DNA from: a virus
Lineage: Duplodnaviria; Heunggongvirae; Uroviricota; Caudoviricetes
Reading direction: 5' to 3' (one strand)
DNA: 19,276 bases
Virus record (IMG/VR): IMGVR_UViG_2617270963_000006
In this document: positions 4,663 through 16,940 of the stretch, one piece after another
How positions within the stretch are numbered: the first letter of the stretch is position 1
How the letters are laid out: each line of letters opens with the position of its first letter
Made by a program: the position numbers and the translations under genes
Notes under the pieces: model-generated
Database searches by the model: none
Told to the model about the DNA's origin: nothing
Seen by the model: the letters and a program-made list of their open reading frames with translations, nothing else

Positions 4663-4884
4663 ATGGGTGATTGCATGTTAATCGAAGGGGAATTTGGTGT
4701 GTTGCACCAGCGGGTAGTCGAAATTCTAGGGGTGTCGTTGCTTGAGGTTATTGCTACTGGGGAAGCTATTTCAGCAGATGCTATTGCGGGAATGATCCGA
4801 GTGCTTCACCATGATGAATTGGATGATCTCGCTGTGAAGTTAGCTATAGATGTGTTACTTCAGGATATGCGACTGTGTAATTAA
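4663..4884 (+). CDS. hypothetical small acidic protein (about 73 aa) between nutL and cI, opposite in orientation to both
   Basis: ORF track 4618-4884; ATG at 4663 preceded by AAGGGGGAAAGG; AT-rich upstream region; hairpin immediately downstream. Confidence 0.4.
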   Translation: MGDCMLIEGEFGVLHQRVVEILGVSLLEVIATGEAISADAIAGMIRVLHHDELDDLAVKLAIDVLLQDMRLCN

Positions 4885-4917
4885 GTAAATAAAACCCGGC
4901 ACTGGAGCCGGGGGATT
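4885..4917 (-). terminator. rho-independent terminator for leftward (cI) transcription
   Basis: Hairpin CCCGGC-ACTGGA-GCCGGG at 4895-4912; on the minus strand it is followed by TTTTATTTA. Confidence 0.5.
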
Positions 4918-5036
4918 TAGAAATGGCATTTTATGAATTGGCTACTTGGCGAATGGTTTACCATCGGTGGTATTGAGCACAATAAAAGGCCGTTCTTCGT
5001 GAGTGTTCTTATAGCAAAAGTTCAGTTGGAGTCTGA

Positions 5037-5744
5037 TTACCAGCTATGTGATGACCAGAACACTCGCCCTATGATTCTTACGTTTTTGTAGAATTCTTCT
5101 CTGTTCATTACTTCATCAGGATACTCTTCGCGGTTTATCGATCTGATAATTACCGATGTTGGCGTGGCTATGAGCGTTTTTACCCTTAACAAATCAGCTT
5201 GGCAAATTGCATATGTTTTACCATCCCTGATGCTCGTATCTTGCGTGTTTACCCCCACCACATCACCATCATGGAGTGTTGGCTCCATGCTTTGCCCAAC
5301 AACCCTGACCAACTTTGCCGCTTTTTCTGGAACTCCCATTTTTTTCAGGTAATAGCGCCTAAAAACTAGAGAGAATTCTGCGGACTCCTCCAATGCACAA
5401 CTTCCTCCGCCAGCTGAAAGTGAAATATTTAGAAGGGGGAGCGCAACAAATTCGTCATTATCATTTTGATGATCATCCCAGGCGATAGCTTTTAAAGATG
5501 ATTCCCGAGCATTAGATGGCTCTTCTGCGCTCTGTGGTCTCATTGACCCTATACCAGAGCTTAGCCATTCAGGGCGAACTCTTAACGCGTTGGCTAATTC
5601 GACCATTTTACGTGATCCGGTTGTTTTACCAGATGACATCTTTTGTATGGCTGGTTGTGATACCCCCACCATGTCTGCAAGTTGTGCTTGTGACAACCCG
5701 GCTGAACTCATGGCGGCATTTAGTCTTTCTGCGAATGTTTTCAT
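5037..5744 (-). CDS. cI: CI-type prophage repressor (N-terminal HTH, C-terminal S24/LexA-like autocleavage domain)
   Basis: The translation has an N-terminal HTH (LSQAQLADMVGVSQPAIQKM), a possible Ala-Gly cleavage site (SAGGG) and the S24 motif GQSMEPT. It is divergent from the cro-like gene. Confidence 0.85.
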   Translation of the reverse strand: MKTFAERLNAAMSSAGLSQAQLADMVGVSQPAIQKMSSGKTTGSRKMVELANALRVRPEWLSSGIGSMRPQSAEEPSNARESSLKAIAWDDHQNDNDEFVALPLLNISLSAGGGSCALEESAEFSLVFRRYYLKKMGVPEKAAKLVRVVGQSMEPTLHDGDVVGVNTQDTSIRDGKTYAICQADLLRVKTLIATPTSVIIRSINREEYPDEVMNREEFYKNVRIIGRVFWSSHSW

Positions 5745-9838: not shown

Positions 9839-10423
9839 ATGACCACTTTTACAAAAGAGCAGTTAATCAGTCATGTTAGTGAAAATGTAAAGGCGATGAA
9901 ATTTGCAGTAAAACAGACAGCATTCAAAAATTCTCTCGAGGCAATTGAGTTGGATTTAGCACTGGCCCTTGTTGCTCAGGCTTCGCTGGAAGCAGAGCCC
10001 GTGCTTTATATGAATCGATTTACCGGAAAGACATTCTCACTGGAAGAGCAACCTGGTGCTGATAAGGAACCGGAAATATACGTGCCGCTATATGCTGCCC
10101 CGCCAGACAGCGCCGCCATGCTTCAGGCTGGAAACTTTCGGGAAAAGAAGGGTTCGTCAACCAATAATTTTCGGGAAATCTCGGAAACGTCAACCAACCA
10201 TCCGGTAACTCTGGATGGTTGGATAAGCTGTAGTGAGCGAATGCCGGATGACGGTCAGCACGTAATTATTTTATGTGATGGCGCATTCGTTCTTTATGCG
10301 CAATATCGAGACGGTGAGTTTTTTGATGTAGTCCGTGATGGTGATGAATTTTTCGAAACACAGAGCCGCAATGTAACCGACTGGATGCCGCTACCAGAAC
10401 CGCCGCAGGAGGTGCGCCAATGA
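9839..10423 (+). CDS. phage protein with a DUF551-type C-terminal domain (Eaa/Ead-like), about 194 aa
   Basis: ATG at 9839 with AAGGAGAA upstream; C-terminal motif VTDWMPLPEPP, which I recall as characteristic of DUF551 phage proteins. Confidence 0.55.
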   Translation: MTTFTKEQLISHVSENVKAMKFAVKQTAFKNSLEAIELDLALALVAQASLEAEPVLYMNRFTGKTFSLEEQPGADKEPEIYVPLYAAPPDSAAMLQAGNFREKKGSSTNNFREISETSTNHPVTLDGWISCSERMPDDGQHVIILCDGAFVLYAQYRDGEFFDVVRDGDEFFETQSRNVTDWMPLPEPPQEVRQ

Positions 10424-10503
10424 TCTGGCCTGAAGCCTTTGCAATTACAGGCGTTGCTATAGCTATTGATTTTTTAGTATATGTTATTTGTCGGTGGGGG
10501 TAA
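10420..10503 (+). CDS. tiny hydrophobic peptide (27 aa, MIWPEAFAITGVAIAIDFLVYVICRWG), predicted single transmembrane helix
   Basis: Not in the ORF track (under 60 aa). ATG overlaps the upstream stop (ATGA); AGGAGG 7 nt upstream. Confidence 0.35.
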   Translation: MIWPEAFAITGVAIAIDFLVYVICRWG

Positions 10504-10538
10504 AAACGTTCGCCGGGATTAACACCAAAGGAGGGAAT

Positions 10539-10643
10539 ATGTCGGATGATATATCACTGGCAATGGAAGGTGCGCTGGCTGTTATTGCTGTTGTGGGCGT
10601 TTACTGCCTGGTTGTGTTTTTGATGGATCGACTAGGGAACTGA
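10539..10643 (+). CDS. tiny hydrophobic peptide (34 aa, MSDDISLAMEGALAVIAVVGVYCLVVFLMDRLGN), predicted single transmembrane helix
   Basis: Not in the ORF track. AAGGAGGG immediately upstream of the ATG. Confidence 0.35.
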   Translation: MSDDISLAMEGALAVIAVVGVYCLVVFLMDRLGN

Positions 10644-10774
10644 ATTCATTACGATATGGGAATTCCCATATCGGGTAAAAACGGTTTGCGGTAAAGCGAG
10701 AGTTAAGCAGAATTGCTGCGGGTGCTTGAGGCTGTCTGCCTCGGGCATGCCACCGTAAGGCAGACAGAGAAAAA

Positions 10775-10860
10775 CCCCAGTTAACATTACGCGTCCTGCA
10801 AGACGCCTAACATTAATCTGAGGCCAATTTCATGCTAGACACATGTAGGTTAGCCTCTTA
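10775..10860 (-). ncRNA. sok: candidate Sok-like antisense RNA of the hok/sok module (position approximate)
   Basis: Inferred from hok-family organisation: the antisense regulator lies opposite the hok leader. No promoter or terminator was pinned down. Confidence 0.3.
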
Positions 10861-10888
10861 CGCGCCGAAAGGCAAGGAGAAGCAGGCT

Positions 10889-11044
10889 ATGAAGCAGCAA
10901 AAGGCGATGTTAGTCGCCCTGATCGTCATCTGTATTACCGTCGTAGTGACGGCACTGGTAACGAGGAAAGACCTCTGCGAGGTACGAATCCGAACCGGTC
11001 AGACGGAGGTTGCTGTCTTCACAGCTTACAAACCTGAGGAGTAA
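10889..11044 (+). CDS. hok: Hok/Gef-family type I toxin (51 aa)
   Basis: MKQQKAMLVALIVICITVVVTALVTRKDLCEVRIRTGQTEVAVFTAYKPEE is nearly identical to chromosomal Hok homologues (HokD/RelF as recalled). In-frame upstream extension from ATG 10832 (track ORF 10832-11044). Terminator follows. Confidence 0.85.
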   Translation: MKQQKAMLVALIVICITVVVTALVTRKDLCEVRIRTGQTEVAVFTAYKPEE

Positions 11045-11111
11045 GAGACCAGGCGAGGGAGAAATCCCTCGCCACCTCTGATGTGTCAGGCATCCTCAAC
11101 GCACCCGCACT

Positions 11112-11134
11112 TAACCCGCTTCGGCGGGTTTTTT
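11112..11134 (+). terminator. rho-independent terminator after hok
   Basis: CCCGC-TTCG-GCGGG followed by TTTTTT. Confidence 0.7.
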
Positions 11135-11253
11135 CACGTACTGTGGTTGTGAATACGATTGGTATTAGGCTATGCTAACAACATTAGCCTGACTAATTTT
11201 GTATTGACTTGATTTTTGTTAAAGAACAGGACGGAGAAGTAAGGGTACACCCA

Positions 11254-11433
11254 ATGAGCTACGCACTAAAAAAACACCCGCGATTGACTATTCCCCCTCG
11301 CGATAAAAGCGTTGTGGCAGCTCCGCGCCCGGCTATCGATGAAAATTGCACTCATCGTGAGCAGGTGAAAAATGCTTTCGATTTCGGTTTTTCTCGTTAC
11401 GAGAAGGCAATGGAAGAACTTTCAAAAGTGTAA
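11254..11433 (+). CDS. putative antitoxin of the Doc-family module (59 aa)
   Basis: Small ORF immediately upstream of the Doc-like toxin, separated by about 18 nt; ATG at 11254 (track ORF begins at a TTG at 11209). Not recognisably Phd-like. Confidence 0.5.
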   Translation: MSYALKKHPRLTIPPRDKSVVAAPRPAIDENCTHREQVKNAFDFGFSRYEKAMEELSKV

Positions 11434-11451
11434 TGATGGGTATTGTGCTCT

Positions 11452-11937
11452 ATGGCTGAGATTGTTGAAGGAGTGCACTACCTTTCGTTTGATGATCTTA
11501 CCGAAATTAATCGCCTTTTAATTGAGCTTCAAACACCAGATGAACCTGTTAGTGTGCTGAGTGTTGATAATTTAAGTTCTTCTCAGTCTCGTCCCAGCAT
11601 GGTTCGATGGTATGAACAGACTAATGACATGTTTGTACTGGCATCAGTATTGATTGAAAGTCTGATTCAGAATCATCCATTTGCTAATGCAAACAAACGA
11701 ACAGCTATGATGGCTGGTTATGTCTTCTTGTTGTTGAATGGCTATGAGTTAACAGCACCAGGCGATGAAATCGTGGAAATGGCAGAGGGACTGGCCTGCA
11801 AAACCTATACTCGAGAAGATCTCGAGAACTGGTTGTGTTATTGGTCTCGTGCGTATGACAGCCGGGAATTATGTAAAACAGGCGCAACTATTGTTTTGTA
11901 TGAAACTATCAAGCTTAAAATAGAACAGCAAAACTAA
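11452..11937 (+). CDS. doc: Doc (death-on-curing) / Fic-fold toxin, about 161 aa
   Basis: Catalytic motif HPFANANKR fits the Doc signature HxFx(D/N)(A/G)NKR. Start is uncertain: ATG at 11452 or TTG at 11443. Confidence 0.75.
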   Translation: MAEIVEGVHYLSFDDLTEINRLLIELQTPDEPVSVLSVDNLSSSQSRPSMVRWYEQTNDMFVLASVLIESLIQNHPFANANKRTAMMAGYVFLLLNGYELTAPGDEIVEMAEGLACKTYTREDLENWLCYWSRAYDSRELCKTGATIVLYETIKLKIEQQN

Positions 11938-11953
11938 AGGTGCTTCTAATGAA

Positions 11954-11976
11954 AATCCGCTTCGGCGGGTTTTGTT
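11954..11976 (+). terminator. rho-independent terminator after the Doc module
   Basis: CCGC-TTCG-GCGG followed by a T-rich tract. Confidence 0.55.
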
Positions 11977-11987
11977 GTATTGGAGTA

Positions 11988-12305
11988 TCATGATATTACT
12001 TGGATCCCGTTTTTCTCTACGACTGAAAGAAGGCGAAGAGCGGCACCTCCCGGCCGTTTTACACCACGTTCCCAGTCTGATATCAGGTTTTTACTGACGT
12101 TGAGGTATCTGGCAAAAACAGGTTGAGACAGATGCTCTCGTTCGCGCAGTGCACGGATCCTTTCCGGAGACATTACCGGCGCTGGCTGGAGACAAGTTTC
12201 ATCGAATTCTCGCATAGTCTGTTTCGTTACTGCGCCGATATCATGAAGCGATTCCATCATTTCATGTACGGATGCAAGCGCATCACTGCGGTAATTTTTA
12301 CTCAT
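11988..12305 (-). CDS. HTH (XRE-type) antitoxin, HigA/MqsA-like, 105 aa
   Basis: C-terminal HTH (LSQPVFARYLNVSKNLISDWERGVKRPGGAALRLL); GGAGG 7 nt upstream; lies directly downstream of a RelE-like toxin ORF on the same strand. Confidence 0.65.
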   Translation of the reverse strand: MSKNYRSDALASVHEMMESLHDIGAVTKQTMREFDETCLQPAPVMSPERIRALREREHLSQPVFARYLNVSKNLISDWERGVKRPGGAALRLLSVVEKNGIQVIS

Positions 12306-12359
12306 TGGGTACCTCCGTAAACTGACCCTGTAGAATCAGTTGTGCCAGTTGTTCATCTG

Positions 12360-12668
12360 TTAGATTGAGTACGTGAGGAGCCCCTTCCGAAATGCACTTT
12401 CCTCAGTAGCGGTTATATTTTCACGTTCATTTTTTGCGTATGCATATACGAAAAAGGCCCTTGTGCCGACGCGATAGAAAATGATTGTGCGATAACCGCC
12501 AGATTTGCCGCCACCGACTCGTGGCAGACGTTGCTTGATAACGCCGTTACCCAGGTTTGCTGAGATAAGCCCGTTATCAGCCTGTTTAACAATTTCGCGC
12601 AGTGACTGGTCGGATATTTTGTTTTTGTGTGCAAATCGCTCAAACCAGGCGTTTTTAAAAATGCGCAT
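12360..12668 (-). CDS. RelE/ParE-superfamily toxin (HigB-like; toxin-first arrangement), 102 aa
   Basis: Segment GGGKSGGYRTIIFYRVGTRAFFVYAYAKNEREN is typical of RelE/HigB-like killer proteins; followed by the HTH antitoxin. Confidence 0.65.
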   Translation of the reverse strand: MRIFKNAWFERFAHKNKISDQSLREIVKQADNGLISANLGNGVIKQRLPRVGGGKSGGYRTIIFYRVGTRAFFVYAYAKNERENITATEESAFRKGLLTYSI

Positions 12669-12772
12669 TTTTTTGTTCCGTTATTAATGTATAACACATA
12701 GTATTACATTGCGTAGGGATCTGCAATGCCATCAGTTTGACAACGTCGCGTATCCGGGATTATATTCATCGC

Positions 12773-12851
12773 ACGCCAGCAAAATCTGGCGTCGGGATTA
12801 GGAACCCCGGATAGAAACCGCGACAGAGACACGCCGCGAGCGTGTTTTTTA
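12773..12851 (+). ncRNA. candidate small RNA (about 80 nt) with its own promoter and intrinsic terminator, carrying a TTAGGAAC motif
   Basis: Promoter TTGACA (12737-12742), 18-nt spacer, TATATT (12761-12766). Terminator ACACGC-CGCGA-GCGTGT plus T-run at 12829-12851. No ORF. Confidence 0.3.
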
Positions 12852-13013
12852 TTGTCGTATGCACACGCACATCTGAATTATGGTGGGGCGTATAGGGGAG
12901 CTGAAAAGCTCGCCGGTTGGTTTCCCGGTAGTTCCTAACCCTGTACGTCTCGCCACCCGATGATTAGGAACCTGACGGTGGTGATAGTTTAGAAACCACT
13001 CGAGGGCGTCATT

Positions 13014-13685
13014 ATGACAACTCAAGTTTCTGTTGAAACACTCTCCACGATTACTTACAAGCAGATCCCCGTTATCACTACCGAACTTTTGGCGCACCTT
13101 TACGGCACAGAAGCTATTCGTATTCGCCAGAATCACCACGAAAACAAAGGTCGTTTCATTGAGGAAAAACACTTCTTCAAACTTGAAGGTGAAACTTTAC
13201 GTGAGTTCAAGCACAGAGTAGCTTTTAACTACTCTGTGAAAATTGCCCGTAACGTTCGCTCCCTCATCCTATGGACAGAACGCGGCGCAGCCCGTCACGC
13301 AAAAATGCTCGAAACTGATCAGGCGTGGGAGGTATTCGAAAAACTGGAAGACTGCTATTTCAGCCAGGGAAAAACAGCACCAACCGAACAGCAGCCGCAG
13401 ATTCAGCCACAATTCACAGCCGAAGAAATCATCCTCCTTTGCTACATGCAGCTCTGGATGGAAAAAGCCCAGGACCTCAGCAAACACCTGTATCCCATTA
13501 TGAAAGAGCTGAACTCCTCATACACGAACAAGCTGTATGACATTGCGTTTGAGACCATCTACATGGTGACGAAGAACAGAGACGCGCTACTAAGGGAGGT
13601 AACACGTCTCGACATGTCAAGTTCCATTATCCAGCGGGCCATGCCAATGCTGAAAAGCCTGCGGGCAAGACAATTTGAATTCTGA
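13014..13685 (+). CDS. phage antirepressor-like regulator (ORF6N/Rha-type N-terminal domain), 223 aa
   Basis: N-terminal segment (ITYKQIPVITTELLAHLYGTEAIRIRQNHHENKGRFIEEKHFFKLEG) resembles ORF6N/Rha antirepressor domains; GAGGG RBS; terminator follows. Confidence 0.6.
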   Translation: MTTQVSVETLSTITYKQIPVITTELLAHLYGTEAIRIRQNHHENKGRFIEEKHFFKLEGETLREFKHRVAFNYSVKIARNVRSLILWTERGAARHAKMLETDQAWEVFEKLEDCYFSQGKTAPTEQQPQIQPQFTAEEIILLCYMQLWMEKAQDLSKHLYPIMKELNSSYTNKLYDIAFETIYMVTKNRDALLREVTRLDMSSSIIQRAMPMLKSLRARQFEF

Positions 13686-16649: not shown

Positions 16650-16885
16650 GTATCCGTTCAACGGGAATGTTACATACCTCACAATTAAGTCAGTTGAATG
16701 TTGTCTGCCCGGATGAGAATTTGTTAGAAAAAACTGCATGGTGAATCCCCCTGAGCGGAGGGGCGACTGGTGACGGTATAATCTCTGATTATCAAAACGA
16801 GAATGACGCGGGTTTAGTGGCACCGGGCTGAACTCACCGGGAGGCACCCGGCACCATGCAATGGCACATAGCGCCACTCTCCAGC

Positions 16886-16940
16886 CCCTCTCCGGAGGGG
16901 CTTTCTTATGGACAAAAAAGCCCGCGCTGGGAGACGCGGG
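16886..16940. terminator. back-to-back hairpins: plus-strand CCCCTC-TCCG-GAGGGG then T-rich; minus-strand terminator (A-run, then GCCCGCG-CTGGGAGA-CGCGGGC)
   Basis: Read directly from the sequence; orientation of function uncertain. Confidence 0.4.

Follow-up and report, generated by a model that had tools for sequence, protein, structure and literature searches.

A variable slot in an Escherichia coli lambda-like prophage holds separable toxin-antitoxin cassettes, one with a frameshifted toxin gene

The DNA considered here, the 19,276-nucleotide IMG/VR virus record IMGVR_UViG_2617270963_000006 (hereafter the window, at its full length), represents the early-right to lysis part of an Escherichia coli lambda-like (lambdoid) prophage, and our interest lies in the 2.3 kb between 10420 and 12700, into which three unrelated toxin-antitoxin (TA) modules are packed: a type I hok/sok module, a Doc module and a RelE/HigB-like module. 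We conclude, with a probability that we would put at roughly 0.7, that this is a recombination-permissive accessory slot holding three autonomous TA cassettes and one tiny peptide cassette, each of which would work, or would once have worked, by the mechanism of its own family and not in combination with the others. The cargo is ordinary mosaic phage cargo of known families, already annotated in public genomes, and is no new system. What appears to be a triple toxin arsenal is made up of two apparently functional cassettes and one that is decaying, and the main value of the analysis lies in this correction; the modest new points are a family of Doc partners that carries no annotation, a conserved open reading frame (ORF) of 27 codons, and cassette junctions that are bounded by repeats. 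In the literature we found no description of the locus, nor of a lambdoid hotspot at this position, but only papers on P2/P4 hotspots, a paper on hokW-sokW and general TA reviews.

An initial annotation of the window, made from the letters alone, had recognized the three modules, and profile searches showed all of its family calls to be right. Profile matches and RefSeq annotation also agree with it in placing the modules between the replication-side genes (DUF1627, DUF977, DUF551) and ant/ninB. Across 10300-12900 the identity is 99.8% with E. coli 23CRST047 and 99.3% with O104:H4 strains. In the RefSeq records of these genomes the gene order runs, on the upstream side, N, a LexA-type repressor, cro, cII, two replication proteins, DUF1627, DUF977 and DUF551, and on the downstream side the antirepressor, ninB, ninE, rusA, ninH, Q and the lysis genes. 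As the same prophage is present in the O104:H4 outbreak lineage, these are genes of a well-studied pathogen.

The comparison across related prophages that the initial annotation had proposed as a check did reveal variable cargo. Cassettes are present or absent independently of one another, and among 45 IMG/VR loci and several complete genomes (individual loci are given L numbers below) they occur in every combination: hok with HigBA2 and no Doc, HigBA2 alone, HigBA2 right after the 27-codon ORF (p27), hok with Doc and no HigBA2, and all three together. Other genes take the same place elsewhere, among them those for QueH, DUF4406, DUF4014, DUF4145, Bro-N antirepressors and a HigA-like helix-turn-helix (HTH) protein. 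When 5,426 complete E. coli genomes were considered, the Doc cassette was found in 125 and the HigBA2 cassette in 217, every match being chromosomal, and at least 80% of the whole stretch was present in 33. The K-12 prophage Qin has relB-relE-hokD at the equivalent position, which provides a long-known precedent in this slot for the stacking of hok and a type II module. There, too, a RelE-superfamily type II module adjoins hok between immunity/early genes and DUF968/Q late-regulator genes, but the K-12 RelE belongs to the Pfam family ParE, PF05016 (PMC11980606), the antitoxin gene comes first and lies on the same strand as hokD, and Doc is missing. Two of the individual loci may be mentioned for their cargo: in L041 the slot contains a DUF4145 protein (1783-2457) with a weak match to the defence family PD-T7-4 (E 7e-4), and in L033 a second, HigA-like HTH gene (4831-5136) directly follows higA2.

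The boundaries of the Doc and p34 cassettes are marked by repeats in the sequence. The suggestion that each module has its own terminator does not hold, as there are two strong hairpins and not three, one after hok (11113-11135) and one shared by doc and higA2, which converge on it; read on the minus strand, this second hairpin has a weaker U-tract. These hairpins constitute a 20-nt direct repeat, 19/20 identical (11113-11132 and 11954-11973), which brackets the Doc cassette, and locus L024, without Doc, has a single copy of it: window positions 10380-11132 and 11954-12760 are contiguous there and overlap by the hairpin. On the right, the HigBA2 cassette has its outer edge at 12708, where homology breaks off in L010, L036 and L021, three loci of differing architecture. 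The small p34 cassette is enclosed by copies of GGGTAAAAACG, a sequence that occurs 3 times in the window against an expectation of 0.02, and it ends in a 22-bp perfect palindrome, CGATATGGGAATTCCCATATCG, at 10652-10673; the entire segment is missing from the aligned phage 933W. The third copy of GGGTAAAAACG is on the minus strand at 5175-5185, far from the modules. The slot between the replication-side genes and ant/nin would have gathered its cassettes as separate units, with recombination at short repeats, the terminator hairpin in the case of Doc and GGGTAAAAACG in the case of p34, joining them to their neighbours. In this the locus is a small, clean illustration of the way in which lambdoid prophages put together their accessory genes, by exchange of whole cassettes at short repeats.

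The module that departs most from the picture of a working arsenal is the third. It is inverted, as the initial annotation had said, with a RelE/HigB2-type ORF (PF06296, E 7e-38) followed by the gene for an HTH protein, both on the minus strand, and PF06296 is the HigB2 family, for which a toxin-then-antitoxin gene order is listed (PMC11980606). The HTH protein matches HTH_3 (E 1e-7), its best match in the PDB is Vibrio cholerae HigA-2 (5jaa_A, E 8e-8, residues 45-99), and it is 100% conserved in related loci. The V. cholerae HigB-2/HigA-2 complex (PDB 5JAA, 5JA8, 8A0X) is the best solved relative of both proteins, and the top ten Foldseek hits of an AlphaFold (AF2) model of an intact allele of the toxin are all HigB2 chains. 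The two pairs share the toxin-first order, a PF06296 toxin with its four catalytic residues, and an antitoxin with a C-terminal lambda-repressor-like HTH domain. They differ in that identity is only about 22%, in that the E. coli family is 123 residues long with an extra C-terminal helix and strand, in that the toxin here is cut at residue 95, and in their location, a prophage as opposed to a superintegron. V. cholerae HigB2 (VcHigB2) cleaves mRNA in a ribosome-dependent manner (PMC5416850); an intact HigB2-like toxin would likewise be expected to cleave mRNA on ribosomes, and its HTH partner would serve as antitoxin and repressor.

In the window, the toxin gene is frameshifted. Relative to an intact 372-nt allele (L058/L024; strain HCP4S3_I4), to which it is 99.5% identical, it has a 1-nt deletion at 12382/12383, position 287 of the coding sequence (del1@287), and the reading frame breaks at codon 96, leaving 95 native residues followed by 7 that are out of frame. 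Because of this deletion the ORF covers only positions 1-95 of the 120 in the Pfam profile, as opposed to 1-120 for intact alleles. All-frame translation shows that the conserved HigB2 C-terminus, ending in APHVLNLTDEQLAQLILQGQFTEVPNE, is still present out of frame, with a stop codon that overlaps the ATG of the antitoxin gene. Close relatives encode an intact protein of 123 residues, the length of the family is almost always 123-129 residues among the 1,925 homologues found, and in an alignment of homologues sampled from these the 28 lost residues (96-123) are conserved. In the model, they correspond to half of helix 3, helix 4 and the final strand, with a predicted local distance difference test score (pLDDT) of 92-96.

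It might be asked whether the frameshift is an error of sequencing or assembly and HigB2 is really intact, and the N-terminal variant of other strains does sit in an A5/A4 run, a typical site of such errors. We find this scarcely credible for the window, where the deletion (AAGG-GGCT as against AAGGCGGCT or AAGGTGGCT) is no plain miscount of a homopolymer, and where the same deletion recurs in independent records, alone in two IMG/VR loci (L013, L025) and together with other indels in 23CRST047, in O104:H4 2011C-3493 and in five further IMG/VR loci. Programmed frameshifting in higB2 was also considered and rejected, the indel sites differing among strains and intact alleles being in existence. 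In a survey of 45 copies of the toxin gene (the window, complete genomes, and IMG/VR loci found via the antitoxin), 26/45 are intact and 19/45 carry indels at four or more different sites: a deletion at position 47 alone (5 copies), the deletion at 287 alone (3 copies), both of these (5 copies), the deletion at 287 with a further deletion (2 copies), and an insertion at 102 in a divergent allele (4 copies). RefSeq/PGAP calls the frameshifted ORFs "type II toxin-antitoxin system RelE/ParE family toxin" and sets no pseudogene flag; in three strains examined (L001, L003, L004), its gene models are 85, 104 and 112 residues long.

Among copies of the allele that are at least 96% identical, every one of the 14 Doc-linked copies is broken, with two or more separate primary indels among them, and 7 of the 8 that are without Doc are intact; the p value of 5e-5 for this association comes from a naive Fisher test that ignores the shared ancestry of what are close relatives. 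The idea that Doc and an intact HigB2 strictly exclude each other was rejected on account of L021 and MFDS1019527, both of which carry Doc beside an intact, more divergent HigB2. We regard the whole pattern as ordinary decay of a toxin with retention of its antitoxin, and the correlation with Doc as an unexplained detail. The HigBA2 module in the window is, most likely, a decaying remnant of which only the antitoxin is intact.

The Doc module raises a different question, that of its antitoxin. Doc itself is full length (TIGR01550 positions 2-122 of 122, 122 bits against a cutoff of 38.65), also matches PF02661 (44.5 bits) and Doc chains in the PDB, and carries the Fic motif HPFANANKR, read from the sequence, which fits the pattern H-x-F-x-(D/N)-(A/G)-N-K-R. 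It shares this motif and the full TIGR01550 match with Doc of the phd-doc systems of phage P1 and Salmonella Typhimurium, and differs in being 161 residues long with a C-terminal extension of about 30 residues. P1 Doc phosphorylates EF-Tu and arrests growth (literature cited in PMC9207808), and the protein here, as a Fic-fold kinase, would be expected likewise to phosphorylate EF-Tu and so halt translation. Upstream of Doc an antitoxin of the Phd/YefM family would be expected, but the gene that lies there, 18 nt away, encodes a protein of 59 residues (DocAT) that has no match in Pfam or NCBIfam, carries no annotation beyond "hypothetical", and is placed in phrog_2208 ("unknown function").

DocAT is directly upstream of Doc in 11/11 IMG/VR loci that have Doc, the pair is also found in APEC O1, strain 120899 and O157 F6321, and relatives of DocAT at 45% and 71% identity directly precede a Fic-domain gene in two other settings, one beside an insertion sequence (IS) element and the other amid genes for tail and baseplate in a myovirus-like Ewingella prophage (L055/L056, 3001-3670). 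The two genes therefore travel together among phages with widely differing backbones. DocAT belongs to a small family, with 17 clusters at 90% identity and 39 representatives at 50%. Save for an L-x-IP-x-RDK motif the N-terminal half varies; among close relatives the last 24 residues hardly change, and a motif in this C-terminal region, QVxNAF..F.RY.KA..LSKV, recurs across the wider family. An AlphaFold model has a disordered N-terminus, a single confident helix (34-57) and no folded N-terminal DNA-binding domain, and the hydrophobic residues of the helix (F42, F46, Y49, M53, L56) have the spacing 0, +4, +7, +11, +14, which is also that of the hot spots F56, M60, H63, L67 and L70 of Salmonella Phd; the C-terminal helical peptide of Phd is by itself able to neutralize Doc (PMC9207808). 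The resemblance to phd-doc, a small upstream gene with a C-terminal amphipathic helix of the same hydrophobic spacing, is coupled with a difference, namely a partner that is neither Phd nor YefM and has no modelled DNA-binding domain. The idea that DocAT is a diverged Phd was dropped: BLASTP gave no alignment, a profile search of 1.8 billion representatives led to 39 small relatives and no named family, and Pfam, NCBIfam and PADLOC were all negative. We infer that DocAT is a non-Phd antitoxin of Doc, which it would neutralize through its invariant C-terminal amphipathic helix. As an unannotated family of 59-residue proteins that precedes this Doc subfamily and probably consists of single-helix neutralizers without a DNA-binding domain, it offers a lead that is cheap to test.

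Several considerations weigh against reading the slot as autonomous cassettes of which two function and one decays. The truncated HigB2 keeps all four catalytic residues, as R51, R64, Y82 and K84, defined as catalytic in VcHigB2 (PMC5416850), align with R47, R60, Y77 and K79, and it is for this reason that we describe its loss of function as likely, not certain. Moreover, none of the catalytic residues of VcHigB2 lies in its C-terminal helix, which the antitoxin displaces (PMC5416850), and the 102-residue product could keep some toxicity or antitoxin binding. In the case of DocAT, only position and shape speak for an antitoxin role, there being no similarity to Phd or to annotated antitoxin families, and in one relative (L054) a 76-residue gene without a Pfam match follows DocAT in place of a Fic-domain gene. 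Finally, many of the sampled loci are close relatives, and counts of loci are not counts of independent events.

In the hok/sok module, the Hok/Gef match is strong (PF01848, E 1.4e-23, 82.6 bits against a cutoff of 22), the ORF also matches the MokW-like phrog_251 (E 3e-32), and the 70-residue mok ORF encloses hok, with which it shares both frame and stop codon, in agreement with the mokW/hokW annotation of 933W. Rfam places a sok/hok-leader (RF01794) at 10720-10894 with 110 bits, well over the gathering score of 59. In both the minimum free energy and the centroid folds of 10720-11136, the first 12 nt pair with 11093-11105 (z -7.4) and the structure ends in the terminator hairpin; the fold-back (fbi/tac) pairing is that of GGGUGCUUGAGG at the 5' end with CCUCAACGCACCC at the 3' end. 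On the opposite strand, a predicted Sok-like RNA with a single-stranded 5' part and a long hairpin followed by a U-tail (-32.9 kcal/mol, z -5.7) is collinear, in the alignment, with the annotated sokW of 933W, and a promoter can be read for it (-35 TTGCCT, 10875-10870; -10 TAACCT, 10852-10847). Judged by these features, the hok/mok/sok type I module looks complete. Sok, a short-lived antisense RNA, would keep the stable, folded hok mRNA silent, and a drop in Sok would allow translation of Mok and Hok, with damage by Hok to the inner membrane.

Its closest characterized relative is hokW-sokW of the Stx2 phage 933W and of the Sakai prophage Sp5, with 90% nucleotide identity over about 10676-11112, the same mok/hok overlap, the same relative position of Sok and the same 5'/3' fold-back pairing, and in 933W it is likewise preceded by a member of the 27-codon ORF family. 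The system of 933W differs in its location near the right prophage end, with other neighbouring genes, in having no p34 cassette and in the sequence downstream of the fbi element. It has been reported that hokW-sokW is a type I system dependent on RNase III and Hfq, that it aids lysis after mitomycin C and that phage yield of Sp5 is halved when it is absent (PMC8621323), and this contribution to lysis and phage release is the sole tested function for a close relative. The same work on hokW-sokW showed that Hok is toxic and that Sok neutralizes it (PMC8621323). By analogy, the hok/sok module here most likely helps lysis and phage release upon induction, and it may also kill cells that lose the prophage.

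Such killing could in principle be all that the modules do. Addiction is the classical role of hok/sok on plasmid R1 and of phd-doc on P1, and one could propose that the cassettes only kill cells that lose the prophage, or stabilize the segment, with no benefit to phage or host. Their behaviour as self-contained mobile units with promoters and terminators of their own would suit this proposal, as would recurrent toxin loss with antitoxin retention, which is typical of the decay of selfish TA systems. An integrated prophage is, however, seldom lost by segregation, and hokW-sokW affects phage yield and not maintenance (PMC8621323). We therefore hold pure addiction to be possible but rather unlikely; it overlaps largely with our reading of the slot as a set of autonomous cassettes, and differs from it only in denying a benefit to the phage.

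The initial annotation had suggested that the modules may act as a combined anti-phage or stabilization locus. As an abortive-infection island, such a locus would restrain its three toxins until transcription or translation of the host is stopped by a superinfecting phage, whereupon they would kill the cell and protect the population of lysogens. The slot is indeed variable, as known defence hotspots are, the DUF4145 protein found in it elsewhere has the weak PD-T7-4 match noted above, T4 is excluded by the hok/sok system that plasmid R1 carries (Pecota and Wood 1996, cited in PMC11980606), and toxins of the RelE/ParE superfamily have been argued to act in defence (PMC11980606). Against this, none of the five TA proteins has a PADLOC match that rises above noise, the only matches for proteins of the window being weak and generic (HTH; Fic, E 2e-3), a frameshift has broken one toxin gene of the three, both here and in all close copies that are linked to Doc, and the cassettes occur independently of one another. 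We know of no defence phenotype for Doc or HigBA2. Moreover, the tested close relative, hokW-sokW, serves the lysis of its own prophage (PMC8621323). A combined anti-phage function is, in our judgement, quite unlikely.

Table 1. Features of the accessory slot and of the adjoining antirepressor unit, in window coordinates (aa, amino acids).
Feature	Position	Strand	Details
p27, ORF for a 27-aa single-helix membrane peptide	10420-10503	+	conserved backbone gene, left edge of the variable slot
p34 cassette, 175 bp	10498-10683	+	11-nt direct repeats GGGTAAAAACG at 10498-10508 and 10673-10683
hok mRNA	10720-11135	+	5' tac pairs with 3' fbi; mok 10832-11044, hok 10889-11044, intrinsic terminator 11113-11135
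Sok-like antisense RNA and predicted promoter	10770-10875	-	RNA from about 10840 to 10770
Doc cassette, 821 bp	11133-11953	+	DocAT 11254-11433 (59 aa), Doc 11452-11937; flanked by the 20-nt direct repeat
Shared hairpin terminator	11952-11973		between convergent doc (+) and higA2 (-)
HigA2-like antitoxin/repressor, 105 aa, intact	11988-12305	-	own GGAGG Shine-Dalgarno
HigB2-like toxin gene, frameshifted	12301-12668	-	present ORF 12668-12360 (102 aa); native C-terminal part 12381-12301 out of frame
Putative higBA2 promoter/operator region	12669-12708	-	inverted repeat GTTAT-N6-ATAAC at 12680-12695, read from sequence
Independent antirepressor module	12737-13685	+	promoter 12737-12766, isrK-like RNA 12773-12850, C4-like antisense RNA 12876-12960, ant 13014-13685

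Two membrane peptides had also been counted as members of the island, and both short hydrophobic ORFs are present (10420-10503 and 10539-10643), but only the second, p34, belongs to the cargo. The ATG of p27 overlaps the stop codon of the DUF551 gene (ATGA), and p27 is found in many prophages whatever comes next, be it hok, the 34-codon cassette or higA2. It is because its length (27 residues, or 25 in one locus), its motif (WPEAF...VYxICRWG) and its ribosome-binding site are kept in many backbones, with a Shine-Dalgarno sequence in at least six different upstream contexts including 933W, that we assign it to the conserved backbone. Phage 933W and the RefSeq records contain p27 and leave it unannotated. 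As a widely conserved membrane ORF of Stx-type and related prophages, it is another lead that could be tested cheaply. By contrast p34, with 34 codons and a strong AAGGAGG Shine-Dalgarno sequence, forms a cassette and is invariant where present. Searches of Pfam, NCBIfam and PHROGs gave no family match for either peptide, and PADLOC gave none for p34. The possibility that p34 adds a fourth toxin, type I-like and paired with an antisense RNA, was considered and discarded for want of evidence: the minus strand over its start forms no stable structure (z +1.5), and the region has 4 promoter-like sites where chance alone would give 4.0.

To the right of the HigBA2 cassette is the antirepressor gene, ant (ORF6N and P22_AR_C), whose interaction with the modules the initial annotation had raised as a topic. 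The unit is self-contained: its promoter agrees with the sigma-70 consensus at 11/12 positions, and isrK and C4 elements (Rfam, 69 and 66 bits) stand in tandem directly upstream of ant. The HigBA2 cassette stops at about 12708, short of the isrK promoter, and many prophages have it elsewhere than beside ant. Nothing here points to a functional link between HigBA2 and ant. The unit resembles IsrK/anrP of the Salmonella prophage Gifsy-1 (IsrK is described in PMC4825925) and C4/ant (immI) of P1 in having isrK and C4 matches directly upstream of an ORF6N/P22_AR_C antirepressor; it differs from both in that the two RNA elements, known here from sequence matches, stand in tandem.

One could also propose that the surviving HigA2 has been co-opted to control the adjacent, divergent isrK-C4-ant unit, which would link the TA remnant to prophage induction. 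The higB2 and isrK promoters are back to back within about 100 bp (12669-12772), HigBA2 adjoins an Ant-type gene in L024, L033-35, L041 and L058, and the antitoxin is 100% identical while the toxin decays. Yet the cassette homology stops 29 bp before the -35 element of isrK, HigBA2 has neighbours other than this ant unit in the largest group of loci, and no operator of the HigA2 type could be found close to the isrK promoter, so that we consider such co-option highly improbable. Only slightly less so, and still very unlikely, is a broader account in which the modules are not independent, the repeated inactivation of HigB2 beside Doc reflecting either interference between toxins or recruitment of the orphan HigA2 (for example, for an isrK-C4-ant induction switch), and in which DocAT, as a separate matter, is a new minimal family of Doc antitoxins without a DNA-binding domain.

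Elsewhere in the window, the small RNA STnc100 has a full-length Rfam match (16708-16913, 165 bits), downstream of the gene for the Q antiterminator and upstream of that for a SASA-family esterase.

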